The notes: generated by a model not told the origin, from the letters alone. A stretch of 64,000 nt of DNA from an uncultured Candidatus Saccharibacteria bacterium (GCA_964560525.1 CAZLLO010000001.1:6656-70655), one strand, 5' to 3'. Numbered from the stretch's first letter, positions 1 to 32,107 are shown. Made by a program: numbers and translations.

Positions 1-1639
1 CAAATCTCTTAAGAAGAAGCATCTTCATAAAGGTAAGCATATTTCTTTGTGAGATCTTCTCTCTTTCTGTTAACTCTCCAGTGTAATAAAGGAGTGGGAC
101 ATACCTACTATATTTAAAGTTCTCAATGAAAGAAATTGTCTTATTAAAGGCTTCATCCTCTTTAGAGTCAAACTGGTAAAAAATAGAATTGGGATCATGC
201 ACCTTTGGAAATTTAAGACCTTGTTTCTTTAAATCTTCACTGTAGTATTTCTCAATCTCTGTTCTAGTTCTCCTAACCATTAAATATTTCAAGATATTGT
301 TTCGAATGTCTTGTGCATTTTCCTTTACAATACTCATGTATTCATCATAGTTGTTTTTTCTGTCCAATTTTCTGATTCTAGAATTCAAACTACTAAAGTA
401 AGCTTCCAGATTCTGGACTCCTGGGATGTTACTTTTCCTACTATTTTGGAATAGTTTTATTTGTGCAAGTAAGTCTTTTGGCTGGTTATTAAATGGTGTA
501 GCACTAACTAAGATTACCTTCTTACTTCTACATATCTCTGATAGTCTTTCAAAAGATATTGTTGCTTCATTTCTAAAGTTGTGAGACTCATCAATAACAA
601 TGTTATCGTACTTATCTATCCCTCTTTCTAATATCCTTTCTAACATACCTACAGACTCACATTCATAACCTCTAACACCAAATTCCATCAACACATTGGC
701 CCATGAACCCGGGTTGTCCTTTGAGATTAGTGCAGGAGAGGCAATAACCAAGGTCTTCCCCCCAAGCGTATTGATTAACCTTGCAGCAATATATGTTTTC
801 CCTAAACCAACAACGTCCGATATAAACACTCCACCATACTCCTCTACAATCTTCTTAGCATTTACTACTGCCTGCTTCTGATACTCAAGCTCTAGATATC
901 CTTCAGGTGTGTAATCTTCTATTTCTGTATCTGCAGTAAGGTCTTCCTTAAAATACTCATACAGGAATTTAAGATATAACTGATATGGTGTAATCTCATT
1001 ATTAAGATGGGTTTTTTCACTTATTGTATCATTCAAATTCTGCGATATATCCATAGCTTCTTTCCAAAGTGCATTAAAATTGCCCAATGCATACTCGTAG
1101 TCCTTACTATTTTTTAACTCAACATTGAATTCCAAGTTGTCTTTAAGTCCTGATCTAGTGAGATTACTGGAGCCAGTGATAACCCTACCTGGATCTATCT
1201 GATTCTTATCAAATGTAAAAATATATAACTTAGCATGGAGGGGAGCCTTATCGTAAATCTTTATCTGTAATTTTCCACTCTTTAACCACTCAACAAATTT
1301 AAACATACCTTCCTCGACATCGGCATCATCTTCTGCTATTGCAACCTCATCAATATACTTCTTGCTAATACTTTCTTTAATCTTTTTGGCTGACTCAAAT
1401 TGTATTTCCAGATTCCCTTGTATAGCATCTACAACTTGTGATTCAGTATTAAGTCCAATTAGAATTCTTACCTTTTCTACTTTTTCTAGACTTTTGTATA
1501 TCTGATAGAAACCACTTATGTAGAAATAGCCAACAAGTATATCTAAATTTTCTGTTCTGGGTACTAATTCATTCAATCGCTCTGAGAGGGTATTACCTTT
1601 CTCATTAGTAATAAACTCAGTAATCTGGTTTCCTGACAT
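1..1639 (-). CDS. PLD-like nuclease domain fused to SNF2/DEAD-like helicase. The N-terminal ~546 aa are in the window; the C-terminus runs off the window edge.
   Basis: Hand translation of the minus strand from the ATG at 1639 (stop codon upstream at 1652-1654) gives MSGNQITEFITNEKG.... It has a PLD HxK-x4-D-x6-GSxN motif (HAKLYIFTFD...VITGSSNLT), a Walker A (GLGKTYIAA) and motif II (DESH) typical of SNF2/SF2 helicases. It is absent from the ORF track because there is no stop codon inside the window. Confidence 0.7.
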   Translation of the reverse strand, partial: MSGNQITEFITNEKGNTLSERLNELVPRTENLDILVGYFYISGFYQIYKSLEKVEKVRILIGLNTESQVVDAIQGNLEIQFESAKKIKESISKKYIDEVAIAEDDADVEEGMFKFVEWLKSGKLQIKIYDKAPLHAKLYIFTFDKNQIDPGRVITGSSNLTRSGLKDNLEFNVELKNSKDYEYALGNFNALWKEAMDISQNLNDTISEKTHLNNEITPYQLYLKFLYEYFKEDLTADTEIEDYTPEGYLELEYQKQAVVNAKKIVEEYGGVFISDVVGLGKTYIAARLINTLGGKTLVIASPALISKDNPGSWANVLMEFGVRGYECESVGMLERILERGIDKYDNIVIDESHNFRNEATISFERLSEICRSKKVILVSATPFNNQPKDLLAQIKLFQNSRKSNIPGVQNLEAYFSSLNSRIRKLDRKNNYDEYMSIVKENAQDIRNNILKYLMVRRTRTEIEKYYSEDLKKQGLKFPKVHDPNSIFYQFDSKEDEAFNKTISFIENFKYSRYVPLLYYTGELTEREKISQRNMLTFMKMLLLKRF

Positions 1640-1746
1640 GAGTATCCTTGTTTAATTTAAATAGTAATGTTGACTACACTCTATAAAAACATCTTTATTC
1701 ATGTCATTTTACCTCCTTCTACTGTTTTTTACCACCCATATTATAT

Positions 1747-3300
1747 TTAGAACACTCTCCGGCTTCCTGGACCAAATACATTCTGCCTTGTCCAATAGTT
1801 AGGTTCGTAACTACTACTCCCATATCTAAAAAGATCCCCGACCTCTTTTGATAAGACTTGCACAGGCCTTCTATCCTCCTTTATGGCTACATGTAGTACG
1901 ATGGTAAATGCATCTACTAGGTCATCATGCTTCTCTACTCCAAAATATACTAACTGCTGTATTAATTTGTCTGCACCTTCTTTTGGAAACAATACTTTAC
2001 CCGATCTAATCATATACGTTACTGAGTCTAACCTAGCCCTCTTATCCTGTCCATTAACAGAAAAACCCTTTGCATCAAAACTACTTGTAACTAATTGCTG
2101 TATAACTGCTCTCTGATATCCAACATCTTCAATATATATCTTACATCTCCTATCAAACAACCCTGATTCTTTTGAAAGACTCTTTATTCGCTCTGTTGCA
2201 GAGGGAAAATCCAATCGTTCATTAACAGGAAACTTTTGAATATATACCTTCAGAGTCTTTTCATATCCAAATACATGCCCTACTACTAAAGCTGTATAGT
2301 CTGCATGATTACTTGAAGATATAGCTAGATCAACCCCTATTACAGAATATCTATACCCATCACTATCTACAGGCAATTCATCATAGTACTGTATCCACTC
2401 CTTGTGTACTATTTGGTCTTCATCAGCAATAATTTTAAGCATATACTCCCTTTGCCATGCTTTATCATCTCCATTCAGCTTTCTTTCAACACTTAAATCA
2501 TCAAGTGTTGGGTATCTACCTTTCCAAAGTATTTCATTCTTATCATTAATAACAGGATATTCCCTGTAAATTGTATTACTCGATTCCTTCTCAATATTCT
2601 TTCTAAGTCTCATTAGTAAAGAATCTTCATGCAAAAGATTTCCCACCATCACAATCTTAGTATTTTTCTCTCCAAGAGGAGCAATCTCCCCTGTGAACCA
2701 AGTATATGTCCTATCTCTTCCTTCTTTCGTCTTTGTAGAAGTTAAATCTTCAACATCATCACAGATAATTAAGTCTGGTCTGTATGCTCCATGCCTTAAA
2801 CCTCTAATACTCTGTTCACTTGAAGCTGCTATTATCTTTGCATTAAAGTTAGGAATTACTAAAGAGAAGGAGCCCCACTCATCTGATGTCTCCTGGAAGG
2901 GGCCTAAGTCTTTTCTAAGAAGCTCATTGTATTCCAACTCTCTCTTTATATTAGCTAGATGTATCTTAGCTTGTTGTTGTGTCTGAGAAAGAATCACTAC
3001 ACATTTCTTCTGTTGTTTTCCTATTATTGACCATATTGGATATGACATTGTCATAATGGTTGATTTAGCAGAACCCCTGAAAGCAACAATAACTGCCATC
3101 TTTAGATTCTCATCCTCTGTAATCCTAAACATTTCTCTTTGAAATGGTGCTGTTTTGTACCTGGTATATTGGCTAAAATATAGATGAAAGAATATATAAT
3201 GGCTTTCTTTAACAATCACTCTTCTTGCGACCTGATCTTCCAAAAGTTTGTTTATATCCTCGATTGTTATTTCAGTATTATTCTGTAATTGGTTGTCCAT
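1747..3300 (-). CDS. terL: Phage terminase large subunit (TerL, Terminase_6-like).
   Basis: 517 aa. P-loop FRGSAKST, Walker B LIICDDVED, C-terminal RNaseH-fold nuclease acidic residues (IGVDLA, IEDVGY, HDDLVDAF). Confidence 0.8.
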   Translation of the reverse strand: MDNQLQNNTEITIEDINKLLEDQVARRVIVKESHYIFFHLYFSQYTRYKTAPFQREMFRITEDENLKMAVIVAFRGSAKSTIMTMSYPIWSIIGKQQKKCVVILSQTQQQAKIHLANIKRELEYNELLRKDLGPFQETSDEWGSFSLVIPNFNAKIIAASSEQSIRGLRHGAYRPDLIICDDVEDLTSTKTKEGRDRTYTWFTGEIAPLGEKNTKIVMVGNLLHEDSLLMRLRKNIEKESSNTIYREYPVINDKNEILWKGRYPTLDDLSVERKLNGDDKAWQREYMLKIIADEDQIVHKEWIQYYDELPVDSDGYRYSVIGVDLAISSSNHADYTALVVGHVFGYEKTLKVYIQKFPVNERLDFPSATERIKSLSKESGLFDRRCKIYIEDVGYQRAVIQQLVTSSFDAKGFSVNGQDKRARLDSVTYMIRSGKVLFPKEGADKLIQQLVYFGVEKHDDLVDAFTIVLHVAIKEDRRPVQVLSKEVGDLFRYGSSSYEPNYWTRQNVFGPGSRRVF

Positions 3301-3685
3301 TTTCTTCCTCCTTTCTCTCTTCTGAGAATGCCATACTAAGAGATTTACGAATTAGTTCCTTTTGCTCATCCGTTAGAGGGAGATCCTTGTTAGTTGTAGT
3401 TACTTCAAGTTTAGGAGAGTAGTTCTTATGGTGATTCTTTAACCAGAATATTATTCCAGTTAAGTTTCCATCCCTTATGGCAGAGATCAATTGACTCTCT
3501 GCCATATCATTAATTAACTGAGCCCCTTCTTGTAGTGCAATCTCAGCATCTTCTGCAAACTTAGGATCTCTTTTCTTCCATCTATAGAATGTTGCTCTTG
3601 ATACTCCCATCTTTTCGCAAGTTACCTGTATGATTGGTGTTTTCTTAAGCTGTTCTACAATTGCTTTCTTATTTATTGTTTTCAT
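3278..3685 (-). CDS. Small HTH protein in the terminase-small-subunit position.
   Basis: 135 aa. HTH signature VSRATFYRWKK. Lies immediately upstream of terL and overlaps it by 23 nt. Confidence 0.5.
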   Translation of the reverse strand: MKTINKKAIVEQLKKTPIIQVTCEKMGVSRATFYRWKKRDPKFAEDAEIALQEGAQLINDMAESQLISAIRDGNLTGIIFWLKNHHKNYSPKLEVTTTNKDLPLTDEQKELIRKSLSMAFSEERKEEENGQPITE

Positions 3686-5010
3686 TGTATTTTCTTTGCA
3701 CTTAATTTAGTTAGGTTTTCCCATCTATTCCTAATTACCTCTGCATAAACAGGAGATTTTTCCATTAAATAGCATCTTCTTTTCATCTTCTCACAAGCAA
3801 TTAATGTAGATCCGCTTCCGCCAAACGGTTCTACTACTAAATCATTTCTTTTTGTAAGGACTTTGACATAAGGAATGAGTATTTCTAACGGTTTTGTCCC
3901 AAAGATTATCCCCTGTCCAGAGCTTTTCTCATCAGAAGCTTTGTATTCTATGAAGTCAGTTGGCTGTATTTTCTTCCCTTTCTCATATCCTTCCCAATGG
4001 GGCTTCCCAGATATGGCATACAAAGCTGTCTGGTACTCATTCTGAAGCAATTCTTCCTCGGGAGGAGTATTCATGACTTCCTCTTTGTATGAGGAACCAA
4101 CCATTGCTATATCGTGTTTAGAAAAGAATTTGTATTTAGCAGAAAATCCTTGGTGTCTATTTGGTATATGCCAAACAATCATGTTTTTTACCTTCCAATA
4201 CTTCTCCATTTCTCCCCATATAGTCCTAATATTTTTCCAATTTTCATATACAATGATGTGGAAATCCTCCTTTGCTACTTCTGAAATATTTTTCATCCAT
4301 AGTTCTGTGAAGTTATCTGGTAATACATCTGTCTCAAGGTACTTTCTGTCTCTTTTGTATCCGAATCCTTCCGTTGGTTTACCGCTCTTTTTCTTCCCAT
4401 GAAGATAGTCCAAAATATACGGAGGGTCCGTATAAACCATATCTGCTTTTTCACCATTCATTAACTTGAGCATGTCTTCTTGTACTGTAGAGTCTCCACA
4501 CATCATCCTATTTTCTCCTAATTGCCATATATCTCCTTTTTGAATTTCAATCTTCTTAATGTCTAGCTTGTTAAGCTCTTTTTTGAGATCAAATACTTCT
4601 GGGCTATTATCTTCCCAATCAAAGATTAGATCCAATTCCTCTGAGTTGAAACCTGTATCTGTTAAGAATTCCTCTGCAAAGCCAGCGAGAAGTTTAAAGT
4701 CGAATTCTCCTTGATTTTTGTTTAATCTAAGGTTTAATTCCTTCTCCTTCTCAATATCTGGAATATTTACATATACAACAGGCATTTCTTTTATACCTAA
4801 GGCTTTCGCTGCCTCTATACGCATATGTCCACCAATGACAATGTTCTGTCTACTAGGAGCATTGTTAACTATTGCTGGATCTACAATACCAAATCTTTGG
4901 ATACTGGTTTTGAGATCATTTAAAGCTTTTTCATCCCATTTCCTTGGGTTGTAGTCAGCTTTGACTAAGGCGTCTATTTGAACATAGACTGTTTGAAGTT
5001 TGTTCTTCAT
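3682..5010 (-). CDS. ParB-like nuclease domain fused to a beta-class DNA methyltransferase (N6-adenine or N4-cytosine).
   Basis: N-terminal ParBc-like block GGHMRIEAAKALG. Motif IV DPPY lies upstream of motif I EPFGGSGST, which is the beta-class order. ATGA start/stop overlap with the upstream gene. Confidence 0.75.
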   Translation of the reverse strand: MKNKLQTVYVQIDALVKADYNPRKWDEKALNDLKTSIQRFGIVDPAIVNNAPSRQNIVIGGHMRIEAAKALGIKEMPVVYVNIPDIEKEKELNLRLNKNQGEFDFKLLAGFAEEFLTDTGFNSEELDLIFDWEDNSPEVFDLKKELNKLDIKKIEIQKGDIWQLGENRMMCGDSTVQEDMLKLMNGEKADMVYTDPPYILDYLHGKKKSGKPTEGFGYKRDRKYLETDVLPDNFTELWMKNISEVAKEDFHIIVYENWKNIRTIWGEMEKYWKVKNMIVWHIPNRHQGFSAKYKFFSKHDIAMVGSSYKEEVMNTPPEEELLQNEYQTALYAISGKPHWEGYEKGKKIQPTDFIEYKASDEKSSGQGIIFGTKPLEILIPYVKVLTKRNDLVVEPFGGSGSTLIACEKMKRRCYLMEKSPVYAEVIRNRWENLTKLSAKKIQ

Positions 5011-5105
5011 AACTTAAATAGTAAAAATTTAGATATATATGCTTAAATAATGGTTATTCAAGCTATATCTAAATGATAAAACAATGATAGTTGTGTAAAG
5101 TTGGG

Positions 5106-5846
5106 TTACTTTCTTAAGAAGGATATATATGCAGGATTAACAGTGAACATTGTGTTGTTAGATATAAAGAAATCCTTGTATCCAATACCTTCTTCAATAG
5201 TATGGTTTAAGGCCCTATATTTCTCATACACTATGTGATACCAATCCTTACTTGCATCCGAGTAGTCTTCACCAATAGCTTTTACTAAATCTTCTAACTC
5301 CCAAGGCATCTTTTTACGACGCTTACCGCCGAACATAAACTTACACAAATCATACCTAGGAGTTCCCTTTTTTAATGCTAACGGGAAGCCATTTATCACT
5401 AAACGTGGTTTTTCTTCTTCAAAAACAACATTATTTGTTTCTAGGAACATGAATTGAGGTTTATTCTTTATTACTACTTTAATTGCTTCTGCAACTTCTT
5501 TTGTCACTTTAAATGATATTGTCTTAAATTTTGTAGCACCTTCCTGTATTGTATAAATCGTGTATATATCTTCTTCTGTAAGTGTACCCTCTTTTAAACC
5601 TTTCCTTATTTCTTTAGGAGAGATAGAAATCCTTAGGTTTAAGAAAAATTCATAGGTATCTGAGCTTAGGTAGATGGTTTTTTCAAAGAATTTTGCTATA
5701 CCCGAGGTAACTTCCAACATCTTATTGATAACCTTCTGTATAGGTTTCATCGTTTTATTAATAATCTCTATCTGTTGTTGGAAACTTCCAGAAGCTATCT
5801 CTATACTTTTCACTATATCTGCGATATCACCCATTTGTAGCAACAC
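5106..5846 (-). CDS. Hypothetical protein.
   Basis: 246-aa ORF in the same orientation and block as the phage-like genes. No motif recognised. Confidence 0.4.
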   Translation of the reverse strand: MLLQMGDIADIVKSIEIASGSFQQQIEIINKTMKPIQKVINKMLEVTSGIAKFFEKTIYLSSDTYEFFLNLRISISPKEIRKGLKEGTLTEEDIYTIYTIQEGATKFKTISFKVTKEVAEAIKVVIKNKPQFMFLETNNVVFEEEKPRLVINGFPLALKKGTPRYDLCKFMFGGKRRKKMPWELEDLVKAIGEDYSDASKDWYHIVYEKYRALNHTIEEGIGYKDFFISNNTMFTVNPAYISFLRK

Positions 5847-5962
5847 CCCCTAAGTTAAACTATCATGTATTATAATATCTTTTACGTATTTATGGTGGGA
5901 AAAAAGAGATAATATACCAGAAGACCATTCTAATATGAAAACAGCGAACATATTAGCAACTC

Positions 5963-7558
5963 CTAGTCTACACCATTTTTCTTATCAAGGACTTTTTTTA
6001 TCTTTTCAATATCTCTGGCCACGATTGGTTCAAATACGTCTAAAATTGCCAATAAACTACTAACATTATTAATATTGCTAACCCGTGCCATCTCTAAATT
6101 CGAAAGTGCTTCTTTATTTTCGGGGTAGTGCTTATTTATAGCGTTGATCCTCAATTTCCTACTAAAGGTATAATTCCCTGGATGATTGGCATCCACTACA
6201 CCATATAAAAAATGAATTATCTTACTAGAGAGATACTGACATCTCTCAGTCAAGTCTTCTGGTCCTTTTTCCACAGTATCATCTTCACACCACTTTCTAA
6301 TCTCTTGCATCTCGGAAACTAAATCTTTATTTAGTAAATAAGTTAATTCTGATCCAGACTGAGGAAATTCCTCGTGTGGAAGCATCTTCCCATACAAAAG
6401 TATTCCATCAAAGGTACATATAAATCTATCCTTCTTATACTCTTCTCCTAAAAAGTCCGATATATTTATAACTTTCACATCATTTTTGATCTCCCGAAGG
6501 AGTTTAGCACTCTCTTTATCAATTTCTTTTGCCCCTTTTTCAAGTATTATATAGATATTAGTGTCTGAAACACCTTCCTCATGCTCCCCTCTAGCAAGAC
6601 TCCCAAGAAGATAGATAGATCGCAAATCATTGCCATAACGGCACTTACAAAGCTCTATCATGTCATTAATCCAATTCTTATGTGTAGCATCAATAGCATC
6701 AAAGTTTGTAAGATTAACTATTTTTAAAGTATTGGAAAATTGCAAATATTCGTTTATAACCTTCTTATCACCCTCCCCAACTAATGGATACCCTAGTTCG
6801 TTAATAAATAAAAGGGCTATGTCGTCAATATTTTTATATATTTCATCAAAGGTCTTTTCCAGTTGCTTTTGTGACACCGTTGAAAAATCTTCCAATGTCT
6901 TATCTCTCTTTTCTTGTAAAAGTTTTTCTCCTTCAGTTGTTAAAACTCCAGACATGCTTAATACAATCCGAAGTCCTTTAATTTCATTAAAATCTTGATT
7001 CTGATGAAGAGTACTCAAAAAATGATGATACCCCGTACGTTTTCTGAGACAAACTTGAATTCCAGACTGTCCAGAATGGTCATCTGCATCCCATTTTGAC
7101 ATTAGATCTTCCAGCTTCTTAGACTTAATAGCACTCAAATATTTCTTTAATTTTTGATCACTTGATCGAACCTTTTTCTTCAGATCCTCAATAGTAAATT
7201 CTTCTGAACTATCAATATCATTCTCCAAAAGATAGCTCATCTTAATCAATTTATCTTTGAGTTGATGTACTAAATCTAAAAAGTACCCTTGATAAAATAT
7301 TATTATATCCTCTTTACTCAAACCCTCAGCTTTTAAAAAAGACTCATCGTACTCATACTTCATAAGAGACCTTACTCTTTTAAGGTCTACCAGGACTCTT
7401 TTCACCTCATTCGCGTAGTCGAATCTTGATTGCAAGTAGCCTGTTGTAGCAGAGTCACAGTTTATAGCCAAACAATGAGGCTCACTAAGCTTCTGCTTAA
7501 AAACATCAATTAGAAGCCTGGTACACAAGTTATTTAGATTTGATTTTTCTATATCCAT
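5963..7558 (-). CDS. Large protein with a Pol-beta-superfamily nucleotidyltransferase (MNT-like) core.
   Basis: 531 aa. GS-x11-D motif LLGSLARGEHEEGVSDTN near residue 318. The second carboxylate is replaced by N, so the domain may be inactive. Rx5-6H patches (RKRTGYHH, RINAINKH) could be HEPN-like. The N-terminal 300 aa are unassigned. Confidence 0.45.
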   Translation of the reverse strand: MDIEKSNLNNLCTRLLIDVFKQKLSEPHCLAINCDSATTGYLQSRFDYANEVKRVLVDLKRVRSLMKYEYDESFLKAEGLSKEDIIIFYQGYFLDLVHQLKDKLIKMSYLLENDIDSSEEFTIEDLKKKVRSSDQKLKKYLSAIKSKKLEDLMSKWDADDHSGQSGIQVCLRKRTGYHHFLSTLHQNQDFNEIKGLRIVLSMSGVLTTEGEKLLQEKRDKTLEDFSTVSQKQLEKTFDEIYKNIDDIALLFINELGYPLVGEGDKKVINEYLQFSNTLKIVNLTNFDAIDATHKNWINDMIELCKCRYGNDLRSIYLLGSLARGEHEEGVSDTNIYIILEKGAKEIDKESAKLLREIKNDVKVINISDFLGEEYKKDRFICTFDGILLYGKMLPHEEFPQSGSELTYLLNKDLVSEMQEIRKWCEDDTVEKGPEDLTERCQYLSSKIIHFLYGVVDANHPGNYTFSRKLRINAINKHYPENKEALSNLEMARVSNINNVSSLLAILDVFEPIVARDIEKIKKVLDKKNGVD

Positions 7559-7604
7559 ATGTATTGATTATACTCTTTTTTAGGGTGTCTCTTTTGTCTC
7601 ATTT

Positions 7605-8012
7605 TTGATATCATCTAGTCGGGGAAATGGGGTCCAGACCCATATGTCCCGTATTATTTCTCTGCTCCATATTCTAAGGCTAAATACCTGGTCAACAGAA
7701 ATCTCAAAAGAAATTCATGTTTTACAGGATGATATCGTGATAACAAAGAACAGAGTAAGTGCTTTTTGTAATACCAATTTAGATTCCATATTAAAATTAA
7801 AAGAAAATGATATTGAAGATATTATGATTGCGGGTATTGCAACCGAGTTAGCAGTTTCAAGTACAGTTCGAGATGCGCATGATTTGGATTATGATGTTAC
7901 TGTAATTGAAGACTGTTGTGCTTCTGCAGATATTTCTAATCATAATGCTACGATGAAGATATTACAGAAGATAGCAAAGATAGAGAATTCTGCTACGGTA
8001 TTTGAAAAATAA
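7605..8012 (+). pseudogene. 5'-truncated isochorismatase/cysteine-hydrolase family gene (C-terminal ~105 aa only).
   Basis: DDIVITKNRVSAF...IMIAGIATELAVSSTVRDAHDLDYDVTVIEDCCAS matches the C-terminal half of the isochorismatase-like fold. The apparent N-terminus of the ORF is translated from repeat R1 (7633-7674), so the true 5' part is missing. Confidence 0.6.
7633..7674 (+). repeat. Repeat family copy R1 (TCCAGACCCATATGTCCCGTATTATTTCTCT...CCATATT).
   Basis: Direct repeat shared with 8036, 9535 and 10323. Contains 3 CCRTAT sub-motifs about 10-22 bp apart. Confidence 0.7.
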
Positions 8013-8035
8013 AGACATATAGATTCCAGACCCAT

Positions 8036-8072
8036 ATGTTCCATATTGCTCCTCATATTAGTTTCGCTACCC
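8036..8072 (+). repeat. Repeat family copy R2.
   Basis: TCCAGACCCATATGTTCCATATTGCTCCTCATATT. Lies immediately after the isochorismatase fragment stop. Confidence 0.7.
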
Positions 8073-8138
8073 TAATTCCTTTTATATACTACCCCATTAG
8101 AGAATGATTGCATTGTATGAAATTAATTACAAAAGATA

Positions 8139-8186
8139 TTCGGATACCATACCATATCCTTCATTTTCAGCTTATCCGTATAAATG
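8139..8186 (+). repeat. Variant repeat copy R3a (TTCGGATACCATACCATATCCTTC...CCGTATAAAT).
   Basis: Shares the CCATAT / CCGTAT phased sub-motifs with R1, R2, R4 and R5, and about 27/30 identity with 8966-9000. Confidence 0.55.
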
Positions 8187-8250
8187 ACAATATTGTAAAT
8201 AAGCAATAGCTATGGAATAATGGAGCTATTAATATAATTGTTATTCATTT

Positions 8251-8805
8251 ATGGATATAAGAAATTCTACATGTAAATGTTGGGTATGTGGCACAGAATA
8301 TAACATACAAGAAGTTCTTTCAACATTTAGTGGTTTAGATTCGGATTTCAAACCAAAGGAAAATATATGTCCTAATTGTGGAGCACCATATCGCCATAGC
8401 GCAACACCAAGTATAGGGATTGTAAGAGATTTGTATACCGCAATCTATTGGGTCCCAAGTAATGGAGAAGTCCCCAAATTGGAACACTTCGTAAATTCAG
8501 AAGAAGGAATTGAAGACTTAAAGAAACTGTTGTTAGCATACAAAGATGTATTAGCAGCTGTAGAAATTTTTGTAGATATGAACAAAACAGATATACAAAA
8601 TTCTTCCAATCCAGCACTTCCAAGTGGACCATACCTTCCTTCCCCCATAGAAGAAGAGGCCAGGTTAAAGACTGAGAAAGCTATGATTACAGAAATGACA
8701 AAAGATGAAGTAGCATTTAAAGAAAAGATTGAGAACTTAGTTTCTAAAACAAAGGAAAAACTTCTTACAGAAAAAGGTAAATATTATAAAGCTGATCTTC
8801 AATAA
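8251..8805 (+). CDS. Zinc-ribbon (CxxC...CxxC) hypothetical protein.
   Basis: 184 aa. CWVCG...CPNCG. Flanked by R3a and R3b. Confidence 0.5.
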   Translation: MDIRNSTCKCWVCGTEYNIQEVLSTFSGLDSDFKPKENICPNCGAPYRHSATPSIGIVRDLYTAIYWVPSNGEVPKLEHFVNSEEGIEDLKKLLLAYKDVLAAVEIFVDMNKTDIQNSSNPALPSGPYLPSPIEEEARLKTEKAMITEMTKDEVAFKEKIENLVSKTKEKLLTEKGKYYKADLQ

Positions 8806-8965
8806 GTTATTCAAAAGTTTAGCTTTTGAGTGTACACATATTTAAGGACATATGTTAATTGGTATGCAGGTTGAAATTGAGATGATGATTGGAGGTTGTA
8901 CTGAAAATGAAACATTTAAGAGTCCATATAGTTATGAAAGATAGGTAGAATACTTGAATATTGAT

Positions 8966-9000
8966 TTCGGATACCATGCCATATCCTCCGTATTTATTCC
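8966..9000 (+). repeat. Variant repeat copy R3b (TTCGGATACCATGCCATATCCTCCGTATTTATTCC).
   Basis: Same family. Ends in CCGTATTTATT, like R1 and R4. Confidence 0.55.
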
Positions 9001-9497
9001 CTAACTAAGATATTTTCCCTTTAGTTTTTCTATTCTTGCTTTGTGTTTTTCAACAAACCAATCATCAAGATATGGCAAATATTTTAACTGTATTTCTAAT
9101 GGTAGTTTAAAAAAATTTCCTTGATATACTTTTCGACAGTTTGAACTTCCACAGTTACATTGAAAAACGCCATCGTTATCTCCATTAACAGAATAATCAT
9201 ATGTTATTTCATCTCCCTCTTTTAAGCATAAACATTCCTAACTCCATTTTTTGTTTTAACATAGACATTTGGATCACAAGAATGATTTATATATACTTCA
9301 GGTTCTTGCATTAAAACGATTTTGTCAGAGAAATAATCACAATGAAATTCATGCTGCTCTTTTGTAAGTTTTGACTCATCTGTAACAACATTAGAATCAT
9401 CTATTTTTAATACAAAATCGCCCTCTCTGAAATCTCTACAGGCAAAAACTCCCTTTCCTTGCTTAGCAGATTTTTTTACTTCTACATCGTTAATCAT
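9001..9497 (-). pseudogene. SET-domain (lysine methyltransferase-like) gene split by a single-nucleotide frameshift in an A4/T4 run at 9220-9224.
   Basis: The 9222-9497 ORF gives GKGVFA...INHSCDPN (SET N and NHSC motifs). The downstream frame 9001-9221 gives EGDEITYDYSVNGD...CNCGSSNCRK (SET GEELTxDY motif plus a post-SET Cys cluster). Adding one A restores VYALKEGDEITYDY. Confidence 0.65.
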
Positions 9498-9534
9498 AGA
9501 ATCAATTATACACTTTCTTTATATCCTTTTCTGT

Positions 9535-9580
9535 TCCAGACCCATATGTTCCGTATTATTTCTCTTTTCCCCCGTATTGT
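9535..9580 (+). repeat. Repeat family copy R4.
   Basis: TCCAGACCCATATGTTCCGTATTATTTCTCTTTTCCCCCGTATTGT. Confidence 0.7.
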
Positions 9581-9645
9581 GTAAGTTCTAATAAATTAGT
9601 TCATATTTATTTTCAAACTGTATATCATGCTATATAATGTAAGCC

Positions 9646-10290
9646 ATGGTTATAAAAGCAAAAGCAGTAATATTTGATAGAGATGGTGTAATTATTGATT
9701 CCGATACACTAGTAGGACAATCAATAATTTACGGACTTAGAGAAATTGGTATCGATGTTCCAGAGGATGATATTCCACCTATGGCAGGAAAAAGCGTAGA
9801 TACACTTAGAGATTCTTTATTATCTAAATGGAACTTCAATTTTGATGAATTTCGTGCCATTCAAAGAAAATATTTTTATGACAATTTAGATAACGCTCCC
9901 TATTACACGGATATGGTTGGGTTTATAAAAGATTTACATGCCCAGAATAAAATTCTTGCGCTAACAACATCCGCTGGTAGAGAAGGAACTACCCTAATTT
10001 TAAAGAAAATTGGGATAAATGATATGTTCAATGTTATCATCGCAAAAGAAGATTGTGCTAAGCTGAAACCTGATCCTGAACCATATCTGAAAACAGCTGA
10101 AATGCTTGGTGTCTCACCAGAGGATTGCATAGTAATCGAAGACTCAGCAATAGGTGTTGAAGCAGCAAAAAAAGCTAATATGAAATGTATTGCAATACCA
10201 AATAAACATACGAATAAGCAAGACTTTTCCATAGCAGATTTAGTAGCCAGCTCGGTGGAAGATATAAAAAACAATATTTTAATCTCTTAG
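9646..10290 (+). CDS. HAD-superfamily hydrolase (beta-phosphoglucomutase-like phosphatase).
   Basis: AVIFDRDGVIIDSD is HAD motif I (DxDGV). 214 aa. Confidence 0.7.
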   Translation: MVIKAKAVIFDRDGVIIDSDTLVGQSIIYGLREIGIDVPEDDIPPMAGKSVDTLRDSLLSKWNFNFDEFRAIQRKYFYDNLDNAPYYTDMVGFIKDLHAQNKILALTTSAGREGTTLILKKIGINDMFNVIIAKEDCAKLKPDPEPYLKTAEMLGVSPEDCIVIEDSAIGVEAAKKANMKCIAIPNKHTNKQDFSIADLVASSVEDIKNNILIS

Positions 10291-10322
10291 GTATTTAGGA
10301 ATATTGGGAGCCCATTATGTGT

Positions 10323-10357
10323 TCCAGACCTGTATGTCCCGTATTCATTATCTCCTC
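10323..10357 (+). repeat. Repeat family copy R5.
   Basis: TCCAGACCTGTATGTCCCGTATTCATTATCTCCTC. Sits between the convergent HAD and ABC-permease genes. Confidence 0.65.
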
Positions 10358-11088
10358 TATTGTTTGCTATCACTCTTCATCTTTCTTTTGAATATAGCCA
10401 TTGTTAATGCGTAAACTCCACAGATATATACAAAAATAATTAGAATTGATAAGAAGAGATTTTCTACATTAGAAGCCAATACACCTCTAGTAAGATCAGC
10501 TGCCCATATAAATGGGAGCCCCTTACAAATATATCCAAATACTTTCCCTGCAAGATCTATAGAGAACCACATACCTGAAGTAAATGCTACTAATTGGATC
10601 ACGATACTACCTAGAGGGCCAGAGGATTTATCAGTAGATATACATCCTACAAGAACTCCCAAACCAATAAATAAGATAGAAATAGGAATTAAAACCAATA
10701 TTGCCCATAAAATGTTAATAGAAAAATGCAAACCTAAGAGAATACCCGTAGCAAAGAAAAATACACTCTGAGTAATAGTTAAAGGAAGTAATGCAAGAGA
10801 ATAACCCAAGATATAATCAATTGGCTTCATAGGACTAGAAAATAACCTTGAAAGAAGTGATGTACTCCTATCTCTAGCAACTAGGTTTGCTGTAAACAAA
10901 GATATGAAAGAGAAACTAAACAAAATAATACTAGGTGTGAAATTTCCAATTGAATACTGTTCAACTGGGATATTAAATTGCTGAAATATAATTAGGAAAA
11001 ACAAAGGTAAGAGAATACAAAATACAAGACTCATAGGATCTCTAAGTAATTCTTTTATATTTCTTTCTGCGAAAGCTATCATTCTCAT
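10357..11088 (-). CDS. ABC-2 type transporter permease.
   Basis: 243 aa, about 6 TM segments. Abuts the ATPase gene (2-nt gap). Confidence 0.6.
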   Translation of the reverse strand: MRMIAFAERNIKELLRDPMSLVFCILLPLFFLIIFQQFNIPVEQYSIGNFTPSIILFSFSFISLFTANLVARDRSTSLLSRLFSSPMKPIDYILGYSLALLPLTITQSVFFFATGILLGLHFSINILWAILVLIPISILFIGLGVLVGCISTDKSSGPLGSIVIQLVAFTSGMWFSIDLAGKVFGYICKGLPFIWAADLTRGVLASNVENLFLSILIIFVYICGVYALTMAIFKRKMKSDSKQ

Positions 11089-11089
11089 A

Positions 11090-11812
11090 TTATTTATTCC
11101 TTGTTGCTATATTAACAAATGCATCTTCAAAATTTTTAGCATTAGATAATTTAATTAACTCCTTACTTGTTCCAACTTCTAAAAGATGCCCTTCTACCAT
11201 TATTCCAACTCTATCTGCCAACATTTCAGCTTCTTCCATGTAATGAGTTGTTAAAACAATTGTTTTTTTACCCTTTAAACTTTCTATCACTTTCCAAAGC
11301 TCTCTCCTAGCCAAAACATCTAAACCTAAAGTCGGTTCATCTAAAAATATAATCTTGGGATCATTCACAAGAGCCATAGCTATAGAAAGCCTTCTCTGCC
11401 AACCACCCGAAAGTGTCTTAGCACTTTGTTTTCGCACCTCTTCCAAGCCAAATTCTCCTATCAACCCTTCTACGATATTCTTTGTATTTCCTATTTCATA
11501 AATACCTGATATGAAATATAGATTCTCTTCAACTGAAAGATTGGGTGCAATTGCAGTTTCTTGTGGGCTTACATTTACAATATTTTTTACACTATTAGAA
11601 TCTTTAACAATACTGCTACCACACAATAAAGCATCCCCACTACTAGGTGTTAACAAACACGTTAGTATCTTAATTAAAGTAGTTTTACCAGCACCATTTA
11701 CACCAAGCAATGCAAATAGCTCACCCTCGTGGATATCTAAATTAACATCATTGACAGCAACTTTCTGTCCGAAATTTTTTACAATATGTTTTATTTCGAT
11801 AGAATTTGTCAT
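11090..11812 (-). CDS. ABC transporter ATP-binding protein.
   Basis: Walker A GVNGAGKTT, signature LSGGWQRR, Walker B IIFLDEPT. Confidence 0.85.
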   Translation of the reverse strand: MTNSIEIKHIVKNFGQKVAVNDVNLDIHEGELFALLGVNGAGKTTLIKILTCLLTPSSGDALLCGSSIVKDSNSVKNIVNVSPQETAIAPNLSVEENLYFISGIYEIGNTKNIVEGLIGEFGLEEVRKQSAKTLSGGWQRRLSIAMALVNDPKIIFLDEPTLGLDVLARRELWKVIESLKGKKTIVLTTHYMEEAEMLADRVGIMVEGHLLEVGTSKELIKLSNAKNFEDAFVNIATRNK

Positions 11813-12030
11813 TATCTTTTTGTCTTACTTTTAATAGTATTTCCTGTTAAGTCTTCAAAATGCTCAGATTTAACAATTGCTATCCCCTTTTTCTTGTCTG
11901 CCAACATCACAATAGAATCGCCAGGATTAATTTCAAACATATCACGAATATCCTTAGGGATTACTATTTGTCCTCTTTCGCCTACTTTGCAAACTCCAAT
12001 ATATTTATCTTTTGGCATATTTATATTCAA
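11812..12030 (-). CDS. AbrB/MazE (SpoVT-AbrB) family DNA-binding protein.
   Basis: GERGQIVIPKDIR swapped-hairpin motif. 72 aa. Its stop overlaps the start of the ABC ATPase gene. Confidence 0.6.
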   Translation of the reverse strand: MNINMPKDKYIGVCKVGERGQIVIPKDIRDMFEINPGDSIVMLADKKKGIAIVKSEHFEDLTGNTIKSKTKR

Positions 12031-22730: not shown

Positions 22731-22766
22731 GGCTATATATTACAACAATCTAATATCTTTCGTATA

Positions 22767-22864
22767 TCCTCCTCCACACTTTCCTTACACAAATGAAAAA
22801 ATCCAAACCTGGTATCTAATTGGTTAGATATAATCTCATTCATAATTAAATACAAGCACCTATT
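22767..22864. repeat. 98-bp direct repeat copy A. It encodes an orphan duplicated 3' end (MNEIISNQLDTRFGFFHLCKESVEED...) of the gene at 26593-27096.
   Basis: About 85% identical over 98 bp to 26621-26718. Minus-strand translation matches the C-terminus of the 26593-27096 product. Confidence 0.75.
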
Positions 22865-26592: not shown

Positions 26593-27096
26593 TCATAGAC
26601 TAAATATTAAACAACCAAGATCCTCCTCCACTCTTTCCTTACACAAATGAAAGAAACCAAACCTAGTATCTAATTGATTATTAATAATCTCATTCATAAT
26701 TAAATATGCAGACCTATTACAAGGCCCATTAGTTGTACTTGTATATCTGTAAAATGTATTAGGTAATACAATATCTAGATTAGAAGCATATTCCTCTGTA
26801 CCATCATTAATAATAATTCTTCTTCCATACCTATTAACATACTTAGGATCATATCTAGATCTTTTGGCATTCCTATTATTATCTGCTATCCCTATAACAT
26901 ACCTATACTTTGGTATCTGTTCTAACAGTTTCTTTGTTGAAAATGTACCTGGTACGAATAGTTTATCTATACCGTACTTCTCAGCATCCAATTCATACAA
27001 TACTTTTGAGCTTCTACGTGTGTAGTTGAAAAATGTATAGAGGAGAATGCTATTCATTCCCCACCTCCACCCATATGGGACAATGATCAGATCCAT
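26593..27096 (-). CDS. Hypothetical protein whose 3' end is duplicated in repeat A.
   Basis: 167 aa. The C-terminal ~40 codons lie within repeat B. Confidence 0.4.
   Translation of the reverse strand: MDLIIVPYGWRWGMNSILLYTFFNYTRRSSKVLYELDAEKYGIDKLFVPGTFSTKKLLEQIPKYRYVIGIADNNRNAKRSRYDPKYVNRYGRRIIINDGTEEYASNLDIVLPNTFYRYTSTTNGPCNRSAYLIMNEIINNQLDTRFGFFHLCKERVEEDLGCLIFSL
26621..26718. repeat. 98-bp direct repeat copy B.
   Basis: Pairs with 22767-22864. Confidence 0.75.
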
Positions 27097-29575: not shown

Positions 29576-32107
29576 CTAAGATTCCAAATTTAATTTCTCT
29601 AACAATTCTTTCTGTTTCTGTTGTAATCTTGCATTAAAAATAATGTGGTAATCAAAGTTAGGGTTTTGTTTTTGGAAATCTCTGAATCCTAATTCTTTCG
29701 CAAATACCTCATTTGTGATTCTTCTATCTCCTTTTTCGTAATCTTCTTTGTTTCTTGAGTAGTCAATCTTTTTATCATCTTCTTTAACTTCAATAACAAT
29801 AAATCTTCCTTTACTCGTCTCTATTAAGAAATCTGGGAAATACCTACTGATCTTTTCTTTCGAGGGATTCCAATATTCGAAGAAAAAATCTGTATGGACA
29901 GAGTCTGTTACGTTTCCTGTAAAATATAAATCTATAACTACCTCATCAGGACTTAATATTTCTCTTAGATACAAAAATAATTCTTTTTCGTCTGTTGTGT
30001 CAAAAGAATATGGGTTTATATGAAATCCTAATCTCCCATTCTCTAAATCTTCCTGATAAACTACAAGGCTTTCTCTATTTTTATCTCGACTTAATTTAAA
30101 TGGGAAATTCTTTGTTAATTCAAGTTCCTCCTCTACAATCGTCCTCTCCTCTTCATATTTATATAACTGGCTCGTAATATCATTCGCAATACTGTTTGTA
30201 ACATATGTAGAATTTCTATTTGTTAAACAATCGCAATTATCAATATTGTTAGCTTTAAATATCTCTTCAACATCTAAGCAAGGTACATGGGTTTTCAAAG
30301 ATAAATTTGCTACAAAGTGTATATATGATTGTTGAGATTCTTCCCACTTAATATCAACTTCTTTTCGTTTATTTATAAAAGCTGTATGAGAGTCTTCATT
30401 CAATTTAATACCACCTTCCTTTTTAATTCCTTCCACAGAAGATTTTATGTACTCGCCCAAAGGTTTTAGCTTTATATCCTCTAGCTTCTTGTTTTCTATG
30501 TTTTTTATTTCGGTTAAGATTTTCTTTACCTTTATCTTTCTTGTTTTTAATACATTCAATGCTAAATCCAACTTTTCAACATTCTGTTGTTCTAAATCTG
30601 CCCTTGTTACAGAGAAATTCCTTTGCAATTCTTTATCTAATATCAAAGCATTTTCATCTGATAAGAATATAGTTGCAAAAGTAGAATTATCTCCAATAGA
30701 TCGCATACATCTTGTAGATGCCTGAAGAACAAAAATAGCGCTTGTAGGCTTCCTGTAAAGGGCGGTAGCCACCAAGGAACGAACATTCCATCCTTCAGTA
30801 CCTTTTCCTACTAAAAGTATAAATTGCTTTTTACTTTCATCCGTGTCCAGTTTCAAAAATTCATCCCTACTTTCTTCTTTCTCTGTATGGTATTCTAATA
30901 TACTTTCTAAAGGGATACCTTTTTTAGAAAGTATTTTTTCCAACAAAGGTCTCAGATTCTGCTGCAGATCTTCAATGCTACTAGAATAAAAAGCTATCTT
31001 GGGAAGTTTTCCTTCTAATTTTAGTCCTTGGTAACGATTTGTAAAGACATTTACAACCTCTGAAACGAAATCATCTGATTTAACATTCTCATATTCAACA
31101 AAATTAACTCGTTTCAAGATACCCTCCTCAATACCTTGTTTTAAACCAAAATAATATACAACATCACTAATAAGTTTGTTATTCACATATGGAGTACCCG
31201 TAAAATTCACCACATTTACCAAAGGAGTCTGGGCTTCTTCATTTAAGAATTTTATCGTTTGTCTTGTCTTCTTAAGTGTATTATCAAGATTAGTTCCATA
31301 AGAATGGTGCGCTTCATCAACAAAGATGGCTAAATTAGAAAGTCCTTTTATAGCATCCCTTCTATAATTAGCATGGAATTGCTTCTCTCTATCCGCTTCA
31401 TTTAAAAGAATCTGCCCAGACTTCAAAGTATTATTTTTTTTCTTTAATATAATTTTTTGAGAGTTTGAAACAATAACATTATAGTTTCCAATAAAATTAA
31501 CAGGTGTTTCTGTGCTCTCTAAATAGTGATATTTGATATTCAAGACAATGTTTTCATATTCTTTTGGAACAACAGTTCTATAATCAAAGGATTTTATTTC
31601 CTTTAAACTCTCAATTATTGTTGTATCAGGAGCAAAAACAAGAATGTTTTTAGCAAATCTTGAATCGGGATATCGAGAAGACAGTATAAACTCATACATT
31701 ATCATTGTACCCATTAACAGAGTCTTGCCAGAACCCATTGTAAGAGCATATACCTGATTAGGATAGGCGAATTGTCCATATTCTTTCTCTACCAACTTCT
31801 TGATCTTGGTTTCTTTTTCAGGATCATAGGCTAAATTTAGAACCTCTTCGTTTGATAACGAGAAACTAGAAATTAAATCTCTTTCAGACTCATAAAGATT
31901 AGGAATTATTTCTGCAGTTGTTTTATTTCCCAATATCTCTTTGAGATATACATAAGTTTCAAAGGCTTCTTTTTGCGGAGTATAAAGATAGTTGATTTTG
32001 TATATATGCTTTAATATGTTTCTTGTTTCTTTTGTAACACCAGGATAATCAGCTAATTTCCAAGATTCTACTTTTATTTTTAATTTTTCGAAGAGGAGAC
32101 TATTCAT
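29576..32107 (-). CDS. res: Type III restriction enzyme Res subunit (SF2 helicase plus C-terminal PD-(D/E)xK endonuclease).
   Basis: Walker A MGSGKTLLMG, motif II FVDEAHHS, C-terminal PDFLIET...IVIEVK. Overlaps mod by 8 nt. Confidence 0.8.
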   Translation of the reverse strand: MNSLLFEKLKIKVESWKLADYPGVTKETRNILKHIYKINYLYTPQKEAFETYVYLKEILGNKTTAEIIPNLYESERDLISSFSLSNEEVLNLAYDPEKETKIKKLVEKEYGQFAYPNQVYALTMGSGKTLLMGTMIMYEFILSSRYPDSRFAKNILVFAPDTTIIESLKEIKSFDYRTVVPKEYENIVLNIKYHYLESTETPVNFIGNYNVIVSNSQKIILKKKNNTLKSGQILLNEADREKQFHANYRRDAIKGLSNLAIFVDEAHHSYGTNLDNTLKKTRQTIKFLNEEAQTPLVNVVNFTGTPYVNNKLISDVVYYFGLKQGIEEGILKRVNFVEYENVKSDDFVSEVVNVFTNRYQGLKLEGKLPKIAFYSSSIEDLQQNLRPLLEKILSKKGIPLESILEYHTEKEESRDEFLKLDTDESKKQFILLVGKGTEGWNVRSLVATALYRKPTSAIFVLQASTRCMRSIGDNSTFATIFLSDENALILDKELQRNFSVTRADLEQQNVEKLDLALNVLKTRKIKVKKILTEIKNIENKKLEDIKLKPLGEYIKSSVEGIKKEGGIKLNEDSHTAFINKRKEVDIKWEESQQSYIHFVANLSLKTHVPCLDVEEIFKANNIDNCDCLTNRNSTYVTNSIANDITSQLYKYEEERTIVEEELELTKNFPFKLSRDKNRESLVVYQEDLENGRLGFHINPYSFDTTDEKELFLYLREILSPDEVVIDLYFTGNVTDSVHTDFFFEYWNPSKEKISRYFPDFLIETSKGRFIVIEVKEDDKKIDYSRNKEDYEKGDRRITNEVFAKELGFRDFQKQNPNFDYHIIFNARLQQKQKELLEKLNLES

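Follow-up and report, generated by a model that had tools for sequence, protein, structure and literature searches.

A satellite-like integrative island with its own terminase, proposed for a cassette array in a Candidatus Saccharibacteria genome

The gene block and its leftward continuation

The stretch of DNA analysed here, hereafter the window, comprises 64,000 nt of a Candidatus Saccharibacteria genome (GCA_964560525.1 CAZLLO010000001.1:6656-70655), a member of the Candidate Phyla Radiation (CPR, Patescibacteria). Its positions 1-7651, the block, are the right-hand part of an integrated mobile element that carries a phage-derived packaging module. An earlier note, made from the sequence of the window, had described such a module ending at a repeat, R1, within a truncated isochorismatase gene, and had offered a remnant, a satellite or an element continuing to the left as explanations. 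When the proteins of the window were scanned against Pfam, PHROG, PADLOC and NCBIfam families, the gene content and the coordinates given there held, and all six open reading frames (ORFs) of the block, which together occupy 1-7558, were confirmed on the minus strand. The genes and the motif at the end of the element are the following:

2-1639, minus: PLD(HKD)-SNF2 helicase-nuclease (PLD-SNF2), N-terminal 546 aa of 1,053, cut by the left window edge
1747-3300, minus: large terminase subunit (TerL), 517 aa, intact; phrog_38 1.8e-81, Terminase_6C 2.4e-7
3278-3685, minus: helix-turn-helix (HTH) protein like the small terminase subunit (TerS), 135 aa, its stop overlapping the TerL start; phrog_309, phrog_4044
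3682-5010, minus: fusion of a ParB_N nuclease-like domain with an N6/N4 DNA methyltransferase (ParB-MTase), 442 aa; Pfam, phrog_498
5106-5846, minus: ORF246 (U246), first gene of the conserved operon, its position conserved in relatives
5963-7558, minus: ORF531, 531 aa, variable cargo of the outer region, inside the arm+core boundary, with a weak nucleotidyltransferase domain
7577-7605, plus: arm of the element-end motif, TTTTTAGGGTGTCTCTTTTGTCTCATTTT, located with the arm+core profile
7631-7651, plus: R1 core, GGTCCAGAC CCA TATGTCCCG; observed breakpoint 7651/7652, the right boundary of the element

The overlapping starts and stops described in the note were found at two of the five junctions (TerS/TerL, 23 nt; ParB-MTase/TerS, 4 nt), and the other three are gaps of 95-116 nt. 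No capsid, portal or tail protein was recognised by the family scans among the 37 ORFs of the window, in agreement with the note's statement on capsid and tail genes. The remaining 56 kb encode ordinary cellular and accessory functions, and GC content is even along the window (31-38%).

TerL is covered by phrog_38 over residues 22-480 and by Terminase_6C, the RNase H-like nuclease family, over residues 321-466 (31.3 bits vs a cut-off of 22.6). The profile of its ATPase domain aligns with T7 gp19 (PDB 4bij), and its match to NCBIfam termin_lrg_T7 (4.2e-19) lies under the family cut-off. Walker A (AFRGSAKST, K79-S80-T81), Walker B (PDLIICDDVED, D181-D182-E184) and the acidic nuclease residues D324, D419 and D459/D460/D463 are invariant in 15 diverse homologues. 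Judged by these profiles and motifs, TerL possesses both the ATPase and the C-terminal nuclease domain of a phage large terminase. The best matches of the TerS-like protein are phage small-terminase families (phrog_309 'terminase small subunit', 2.8e-12; phrog_4044, 4.7e-8), and those of ParB-MTase are ParB_N (5.8e-12), N6_N4_Mtase (7e-21) and phrog_498 (1.9e-81). In comparison with relatives at 73-88% aa identity, the ratio of nonsynonymous to synonymous substitution rates (dN/dS) was 0.05-0.09 for TerL, 0.04-0.08 for TerS and about 0.05 for ParB-MTase; these ratios are rough, with dS saturated, and their direction is clear. All three genes are intact and under strong purifying selection, not decaying.

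The two outer genes are less readily classified. For ORF246, gene callers prefer a product of 242 aa starting from the ATG at 5834; it has no family match in Pfam, PHROG, PADLOC or NCBIfam, and its homologues, which form 248 representative clusters in public data, hold the same position in the related loci L002, L005, L006, L008 and others. The idea, taken from a sequence pattern, of an OmpR/PhoB-type winged-helix regulator was discarded after hhalign returned a probability of 0.2% against E. coli OmpR, and an AlphaFold model built from 8 sequences (mean pLDDT 48.7) was too poor for a fold search and thus uninformative. ORF531 weakly matches NTP_transf_2 (2.6e-4) and PADLOC PDC-S09 (6.6e-7), and no homologue was found for it in 166 related loci.

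At the left edge, PLD-SNF2 matches PLDc_2 (1.1e-12), SNF2-rel (2.9e-8), ResIII and phrog_26785 (2e-138) and, in PADLOC, 'HKD+Snf2' (1.9e-48) as well as DrmD models. That the element continues beyond this edge, as the note had allowed, is established by a 9.9-kb Logan contig (L001), found by means of the exact TerL protein and 100% identical to window positions 1-4894. In this contig TerL is followed by the full 1,053-aa PLD-SNF2, a 1,143-aa Eco57I/MmeI-type methyltransferase (PADLOC REase_MTase_IIG, 7e-218) and the start of a recombinase gene. The last 38 nt of the contig contain the first 12 codons of that gene, ATGAAAGATACCAATGAATTAAAATATGT (MKDTNELKYV...), which align with the start of the large serine recombinase of L008, the nearest relative; these 12 codons are all that was seen of the element's own recombinase gene. 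In the direction of transcription, the gene order of the element is arm+core, ORF531, U246, ParB-MTase, TerS, TerL, PLD-SNF2, type IIG methyltransferase, large serine recombinase.

The leftward search proposed in the note for portal, capsid and integrase genes thus returned the start of an integrase and neither of the other two. A phage packaging module would have the portal next to the terminase, and a prophage would have portal, capsid and tail genes contiguous with it; here TerL is followed by a helicase, a methyltransferase and a recombinase. PLD-SNF2 is defence cargo, paired with the type IIG restriction-modification-like methyltransferase to the left of the window, and the two recur as a two-gene unit in at least 12 loci. 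With respect to DISARM, only partial DrmD-like and DrmMI-like matches were obtained, and neither DrmA nor DrmB is present in L001 or L002.

Boundary site and cassette array

R1 is a 44-nt repeat at 7627-7670. Three more copies follow it on the same, plus strand, at 8019, 9529 and 10317, the four being placed also at 7632, 8024, 9534 and 10322, and the rest of the window has none. Chance alone would give zero copies; the repeat is real, and the block ends 68 nt from it, as measured from the ORF531 start, within the 75 bp given in the note. The similarity of the window DNA to its relatives ends inside ORF246, and ORF531 has no homologues, so that gene content alone leaves the boundary ambiguous. 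It is settled by a composite motif, in which an arm (...CTTTTTATACTGTCTTATTTGTCTCATTTTAG) precedes a core (GTTCCAGAC NNN TATGTYCCG) and by which R1 is identified as the true boundary of the element. In the window copy, the two parts are separated by an insertion of 24-25 nt (7606-7630).

In L002, L006 and L008 the arm+core motif is situated beyond the variable genes, as it is, in a diverged form, in other CPR classes. In 30 related loci its profile identified 33 sites; each of them lies on the ParB-MTase side and runs opposite to TerL, and most follow the stop codon of the outermost gene by 20-90 nt. The arm is also where independent Logan contigs break off. In the contig of a 78%-identical relative, the TerL unit is enclosed by two arm+core sites 18.9 kb apart; in L019 the recombinase gene of the preceding unit stops 27 nt before the motif, and in L058 a preceding recombinase gene is followed by a 141-aa ORF ending 24 nt from it. 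A core-like site beyond the recombinase was not present within the fetched DNA of L002, L008 and L087, and was found via L224, a separate locus of the same contig. An exact 24-mer across the arm/core junction occurs in 49 metagenome contigs, with at most 3 copies per 13 kb and always in direct orientation, and most of these sites carry a conserved extension of ~50 nt. Identity with other contexts switches exactly after ...CCG, and the central triplet varies (CCA in the window, GTG elsewhere).

Several known kinds of site were considered for this motif. Rfam gave no match, neither in window 5700-10600 nor in three loci whose sites are complete. RNAalifold, applied to 18 aligned copies, gave six pairs (-3.7 kcal/mol), none of them covarying, and thus no support for a conserved RNA fold; on visual inspection, a short hairpin on the 3' side of the aligned core, not captured by the alignment, seems to keep its stem despite sequence change. 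A tRNA 3'-end reading of '...CCCGCCA' failed manual stem pairing, and a dif/Xer site and an integron attC were rejected on sequence, there being no inner palindrome and no R''/R' boxes. The arm/core looks like a protein-bound DNA site. It is also found around a unit of another composition: in L006 (1-4300), beside the TerL element, an arm/core-bounded unit carries an FtsK/SpoIIIE-type DNA translocase and small proteins, and may be a different kind of mobile unit sharing the site.

To the right of R1, the sites and the units between them continue as a short array:

7652-8990, plus: portable cassette with the truncated isochorismatase gene and ORF184 (8251-8805, zinc-ribbon-like), recurring elsewhere
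9533-9553, plus: R3 core, between a SET-domain unit (9222-9497, minus, 91 aa) and the HAD unit
10321-10341, plus: R4 core, which closes the HAD-hydrolase unit (9646-10290) and is followed by no other site up to the ABC-transporter genes

The isochorismatase ORF (7605-8012; called gene 7629-8012, 127 aa) covers only positions 69-166 of 175 of the Pfam profile (8.3e-28), without the N-terminal catalytic Asp region. Because of this partial coverage, and of a length of 127 aa vs 184-193 aa in full-length homologues, it is truncated at the 5' end exactly at R1, as the note had claimed. From this truncation the note had derived the insertional disruption of a host gene, whose 5' half should then lie at the far end of the element, and large serine recombinases often target coding sequences, as in SPbeta and the skin element. 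However, at least 24 contigs, drawn from many samples, encode the identical truncated 127-aa product (100%), its gene beginning at the same R-type site, and it moves as part of a larger unit: window 7631-8990 recurs with 99.8% identity over 1,360 bp in L170-L175, L178 and L179, all spanning the block of 1,360 bp, and L176 and L177 match it at 99.7% over 963 and 944 bp, up to the contig ends. In L170-L179 the flanks differ from the window on both sides. To the left, nine of the ten contigs have an epimerase gene and a gene of 126 aa, and this flank closes with a diverged arm and a GTG-triplet core; the tenth, L170, begins 34 nt before the cassette, too near to it to show more than the diverged arm and the GTG core. 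A host gene split by this element is therefore a very improbable account of the truncation.

To the right, after ...CCATATCCTCCG, these contigs show the CCA-type extension of complete sites or other sequence, and the window has TATT.... Because the identical block recurs with other flanks, the truncated gene and ORF184 form a portable cassette. Its breakpoints fall exactly after the CCG of core-type sites, with an end site at 8974-8990 and degenerate sites inside it at 8023-8043 and 8147-8163. R1 is a hybrid: on one side its arm and core are of the element type, on the other its extension (TATT) is of the cassette type, and recombination of two unlike sites would be expected to leave such a junction.

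From 7631 to 10341 the order is thus element, arm-core, isochorismatase/ORF184 cassette, SET unit and HAD unit, followed by the ABC-transporter genes. The core-type sites, at 7631, 8023, 8974, 9533 and 10321, are all direct, as in the tandem accretion of the staphylococcal cassette chromosome (SCC). Its sites and units suggest that the array has an integron-like or SCC-like organisation in a CPR genome. Beyond the array, a 68-aa MazE-antitoxin-like gene (about 11812-12018; L169 4229-4435) lies directly upstream of the ABC-transporter pair.

The element family in CPR bacteria and its phage relatives

Homologues of TerL number more than 3,900, and the best 120 of them, at 54-81% identity, come mostly from Patescibacteria and Dojkabacteria assemblies, many on chromosomal contigs of up to 1.19 Mb. 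A pattern scan of species-representative genomes, among which the source genome is not included, returned at least 557 loci from practically every CPR class (Dojka-, Sacchari-, Morani-, Peri-, Berkel-, Woese-, Levy-, Paceibacteria, Gracili-, Peregrinibacteria, WWE3), and a further search of IMG/VR gave 346 loci of the TerL family. As far as sampled, the element family is confined to CPR/Patescibacteria. The note had regarded terminase-bearing prophages as uncommon in such bacteria; the TerL family turns out to be widespread among them, in islands rather than in prophages. Two observations on the records themselves were made along the way. IMG/VR lists the TerL islands as viral contigs, and many 'binchicken' assemblies with a CPR-type element (L014, L019, L020, L025, L028, L030, L031 and others) are titled Gammaproteobacteria, Bdellovibrionales and so on, so that the taxonomy of these records looks unreliable or the bins mixed.

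For 166 fetched loci, ORFs were called, labelled by BLAST to seeds and clustered, which separated 146 element-type from 20 phage-type loci. In the element-type loci, the 5' part consists of a variable 200-300-aa protein, ParB-MTase (as one or two ORFs), TerS and TerL, and after it come 0-12 variable genes and then a CcrB-like large serine recombinase. Within the fetched DNA the recombinase was found downstream in 100 of the 146 loci, adjacent to TerL in 41, with a median gap of 923 bp. A TerS-like homologue stands immediately upstream of TerL in 134/167 loci, and ParB-MTase is present in 148/167. Portal, capsid and tail genes are absent from every one of the 146 element-type loci, and minimal members hold little beyond ParB-MTase, TerS, TerL and the recombinase, within about 5-6 kb.

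The slot between TerL and the recombinase is mostly filled with restriction-modification and other defence genes, the cargo including type I, III and IIG restriction-modification, HKD-SNF2, reverse transcriptase and RecD-like helicase. A divergent LexA/CI-type S24 repressor gene lies upstream in 25 loci, and a gene for a 73-aa HTH_3 protein occurs in 16. After the recombinase, an OB-fold (tRNA_anti-like) protein is a recurrent accessory gene; in L024, L028 and L030 it is preceded, ~20-200 nt past the recombinase stop, by a conserved GC-rich segment of ~170 nt, which looks structured and could be an unannotated RNA element. The recombinase itself, with Resolvase and Recombinase domains, has CcrB, XisF and CcrA as its nearest curated families, far below their cut-offs. 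For the L008 orthologue the best NCBIfam match is CcrB (2.8e-30, 105 bits vs a cut-off of 900), which would place it in the same superfamily as CcrB without making it an equivalog. No primase or replicase family was recognised among the genes scanned, and of the combination of tyrosine integrase, AlpA and primase that marks phage-inducible chromosomal islands (PICIs) only an integrase is present, a serine one.

The ends of the family members were also inspected. No motif just past the recombinase stop is common to the loci examined, and around the Saccharibacteria copy of L005, which lies in a complete genome, no convincing direct repeats were found. The complete 18.9-kb unit of the relative mentioned above also holds a glycosyltransferase, a sortase and a DUF4238 gene, and it contains no structural gene except for a weak MuF-like domain. 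This domain belongs to a 236-aa protein (d236) encoded two genes past the recombinase (L224 3479-4186, equal to L002 20433-21143), with a match to phrog_1657 'head morphogenesis' (4e-9) and a MuF-like P.H..C.C motif. It is the sole hint of a capsid-interacting protein in a family member, and in BLASTP against the portal-MuF fusion of the phage-type loci the motif alone was aligned (E = 0.2). L216 is a decayed family member: of its TerL a 77-aa remnant is left (4368-4598), next to the genes of PLD-SNF2 and of a type IIG methyltransferase, and an arm/core site lies 1.5 kb off. This locus suggests that cassettes can arise by the erosion of full elements. Single IMG/VR contigs of 25-55 kb hold two separate TerL elements in the pairs L118/L119, L094/L124 and L102/L127; therefore genomes can hold several copies.

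The phage-type loci, 20 in number and all from IMG/VR, show what follows a TerL of this lineage in a virus. TerL is succeeded by a portal-MuF fusion (phrog_2662, 1.5e-111), a protease and an HK97-type major head protein (phrog_10, 5.7e-90), and further by adaptors, a tail terminator and tail proteins, several of these loci having ParB-MTase upstream of TerL. The homology check proposed in the note thus led to CPR phages: TerL identity between the phage-type and the element-type is 0.28-0.50 (median 0.37), the median among the element-type is 0.49, and the best cultured phages, which are Mu-like, reach about 27% with the TerL of the window. On these identities, the element TerLs are set apart from the phage TerLs, and the packaging genes derive from a CPR phage lineage and now form a group of their own.

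Elsewhere in the window, three further features were recorded. A second restriction-modification system, outside the element, lies at 29576-33923 on the minus strand (843-aa ResIII-type helicase and 607-aa N6/N4 methyltransferase, type III-like). At 22766-22864 and 26620-26718, the two copies of a 99-nt direct repeat (87% identity) surround the genes of a 553-aa protein and a 524-aa flavin amine-oxidase-like protein. At 55164-58082, minus strand, a 972-aa protein matches phrog_32805 (1e-228), and it probably represents a housekeeping enzyme family also found in large phages.

Proposed explanation and comparison with known systems

The element is neither a prophage nor a decaying remnant. Of the possibilities raised in the note, a satellite fits best, and we lean, by a modest degree, towards a satellite-like island with its own terminase, lodged in an SCC-like cassette array. 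Such islands probably move in the capsids of other phages, packaging being presumed from the gene content. In the proposed mechanism, the serine recombinase would excise and integrate the element at arm/core sites, and would act in trans on recombinase-less cassettes, which would give rise to SCC-like tandem accretion. After excision, TerS would recognise the element's own DNA, and TerL would cut it and pump it into helper-phage procapsids whose portal is compatible with the TerL lineage; the satellite would thereby supply the complete terminase, the motor, and not the capsid, the shell. ParB-methyltransferase may pre-methylate or mark the DNA, and the restriction cargo would pay for the upkeep of the island by protecting the host cell. 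A more far-reaching version, which we hold only tentatively, is that of a CPR phage satellite spread through the whole phylum that has lost all virion genes but TerS and TerL (with ParB-MTase), commandeers the procapsids of CPR phages, integrates by means of a Ccr-like serine recombinase into arrays of exchangeable cassettes with a conserved site of ~100 nt and serves as a main vehicle of restriction-modification and other defence genes in the reduced CPR genomes.

Several points weigh against the satellite explanation. In the contig data neither an excision product, a circular form nor encapsidation was seen; terminal repeats are absent from all fully covered contigs, and there is no circular or terminally redundant contig among the loci. 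Neither a helper phage nor, within the element, a replication module could be recognised, and one end of the window's own element lies beyond the sequence covered. The half-site repeats of the arm/core are direct, not inverted, around the breakpoint, unlike textbook attachment sites of large serine recombinases; since direct repeats are unusual for these enzymes, we infer, and do no more than infer, that the site is that of the element's recombinase. The window copy may be immobile, because it is without the S24 repressor and has the arm-core insertion. In the open-access literature no description of the element family was found, and an earlier description is possible.

The main rival keeps the island and changes the role of its terminase. 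In this alternative, an integrative defence island has co-opted the terminase as an anti-phage nuclease, as a packaging decoy or for processing in replication or excision, and spreads by transformation or otherwise. The prevalence of defence genes in the cargo agrees with it, as does the failure to find a helper phage, a gene for capsid interaction or a replication module, and CPR bacteria are thought to take up DNA readily. Yet TerS, TerL and ParB-MTase stay together as in phage packaging operons, with intact ATPase and nuclease motifs; no PADLOC model matches TerL or TerS; the switch genes, for an S24 repressor and an HTH protein, point to a life cycle that can be induced; and the closest complete relative has the MuF-like 'head morphogenesis' gene near its recombinase. 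A non-packaging role in defence or element processing is for these reasons considered unlikely, although it deserves more weight than any other competitor of the satellite explanation.

Much less probable is an autonomous virus-like element with capsid genes too divergent to be recognised, for which U246, d321 and genes near the ends would be candidates. Several conserved genes are indeed without a detectable family, and a 'complete Saccharibacteria phage' lacking an identifiable capsid protein has been mentioned (PMC6509639), which may or may not be related. Against this, the minimal members of about 5-6 kb are far too small for a tailed virion, the HK97-type capsid, portal and tail genes of the related phages are easily recognised, and the structure model of U246 gives no information. 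The weakest alternative, a prophage remnant that lost its structural genes and kept its packaging genes by chance, can point to the phage-like order of ParB-MTase, TerS and TerL, shared with phage-type relatives, and to one clearly decayed copy (L216), but is already largely refuted by a capsid-less architecture with recombinase that recurs in 146 loci across all CPR classes, by dN/dS of about 0.05 with invariant catalytic residues and by TerLs distinct from those of phages.

CPR bacteria make up a large share of bacterial diversity, and to our knowledge little has been learnt of their phages, of their defence systems and of the ways in which they exchange genes. If the satellite explanation is true, it would account for many sequences in CPR genomes and IMG/VR that are called 'viral' without being prophages, and it would add a satellite strategy, 'bring the motor, steal the shell', which is absent from the described satellite families. 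The arm/core site and the recombinase would then offer a concrete way to test how CPR bacteria transfer genes horizontally and replace their defence genes, and might yield a new, compact recombinase/site pair for genetic tools in these hard-to-manipulate organisms.

The element can be compared with several known systems. With the packaging module of temperate tailed phages it shares the same gene order and families up to TerL, after which defence cargo and the recombinase take the place of the portal, protease, capsid and tail genes. Its cargo resembles DISARM and type IIG systems, in that PLD-SNF2 matches HKD+Snf2 and DrmD and its 1,143-aa partner is of type IIG, but it is without the DISARM core genes DrmA and DrmB (DUF1998). 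The array recalls integrons in its short, promoter-poor cassettes, the recurrent site between them and the presence of identical cassettes in different arrays; unlike integrons, no IntI-type tyrosine recombinase was seen, and the site is conserved in sequence, without attC-like R''/R' boxes or a supported fold.

The likeness to SCC/SCCmec concerns both the enzyme and the organisation. The nearest families of the recombinase are CcrB, CcrA and XisF, tandem units are bounded by direct-repeat sites, and recombinase-less cassettes stand beside a recombinase-bearing unit, as in SCC composite islands. In contrast to SCC, which is without a terminase, the Ccr score is 105 bits vs the 900 cut-off, the site is unrelated to the integration site of SCC in rlmH/orfX, and the recombinase is presumed to act on the CPR site.

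Among phage satellites, capsid-forming PICIs (cf-PICIs) have, besides TerS and TerL, a capsid, protease, portal and connector of their own, none of which was found in the CPR element. Classical PICIs have only TerS or a redirecting protein and borrow the TerL of the helper, whereas the CPR element has both subunits, a serine instead of a tyrosine integrase, no detected AlpA or primase-replicase and a presumed dependence on a helper. In other respects, the element seems best described as a phage-satellite-like integrative island, of a kind for which the open-access full text held no description in CPR bacteria. PICIs and Staphylococcus aureus pathogenicity islands (SaPIs) are likewise small integrated islands of roughly 5-20 kb, with an integrase, a repressor-type switch, packaging gene(s) of phage origin by which encapsidation is diverted to the island and, in many cases, defence cargo; the packaging-specificity gene of its own that such an island carries has its counterpart here in the TerS-like gene directly upstream of TerL.

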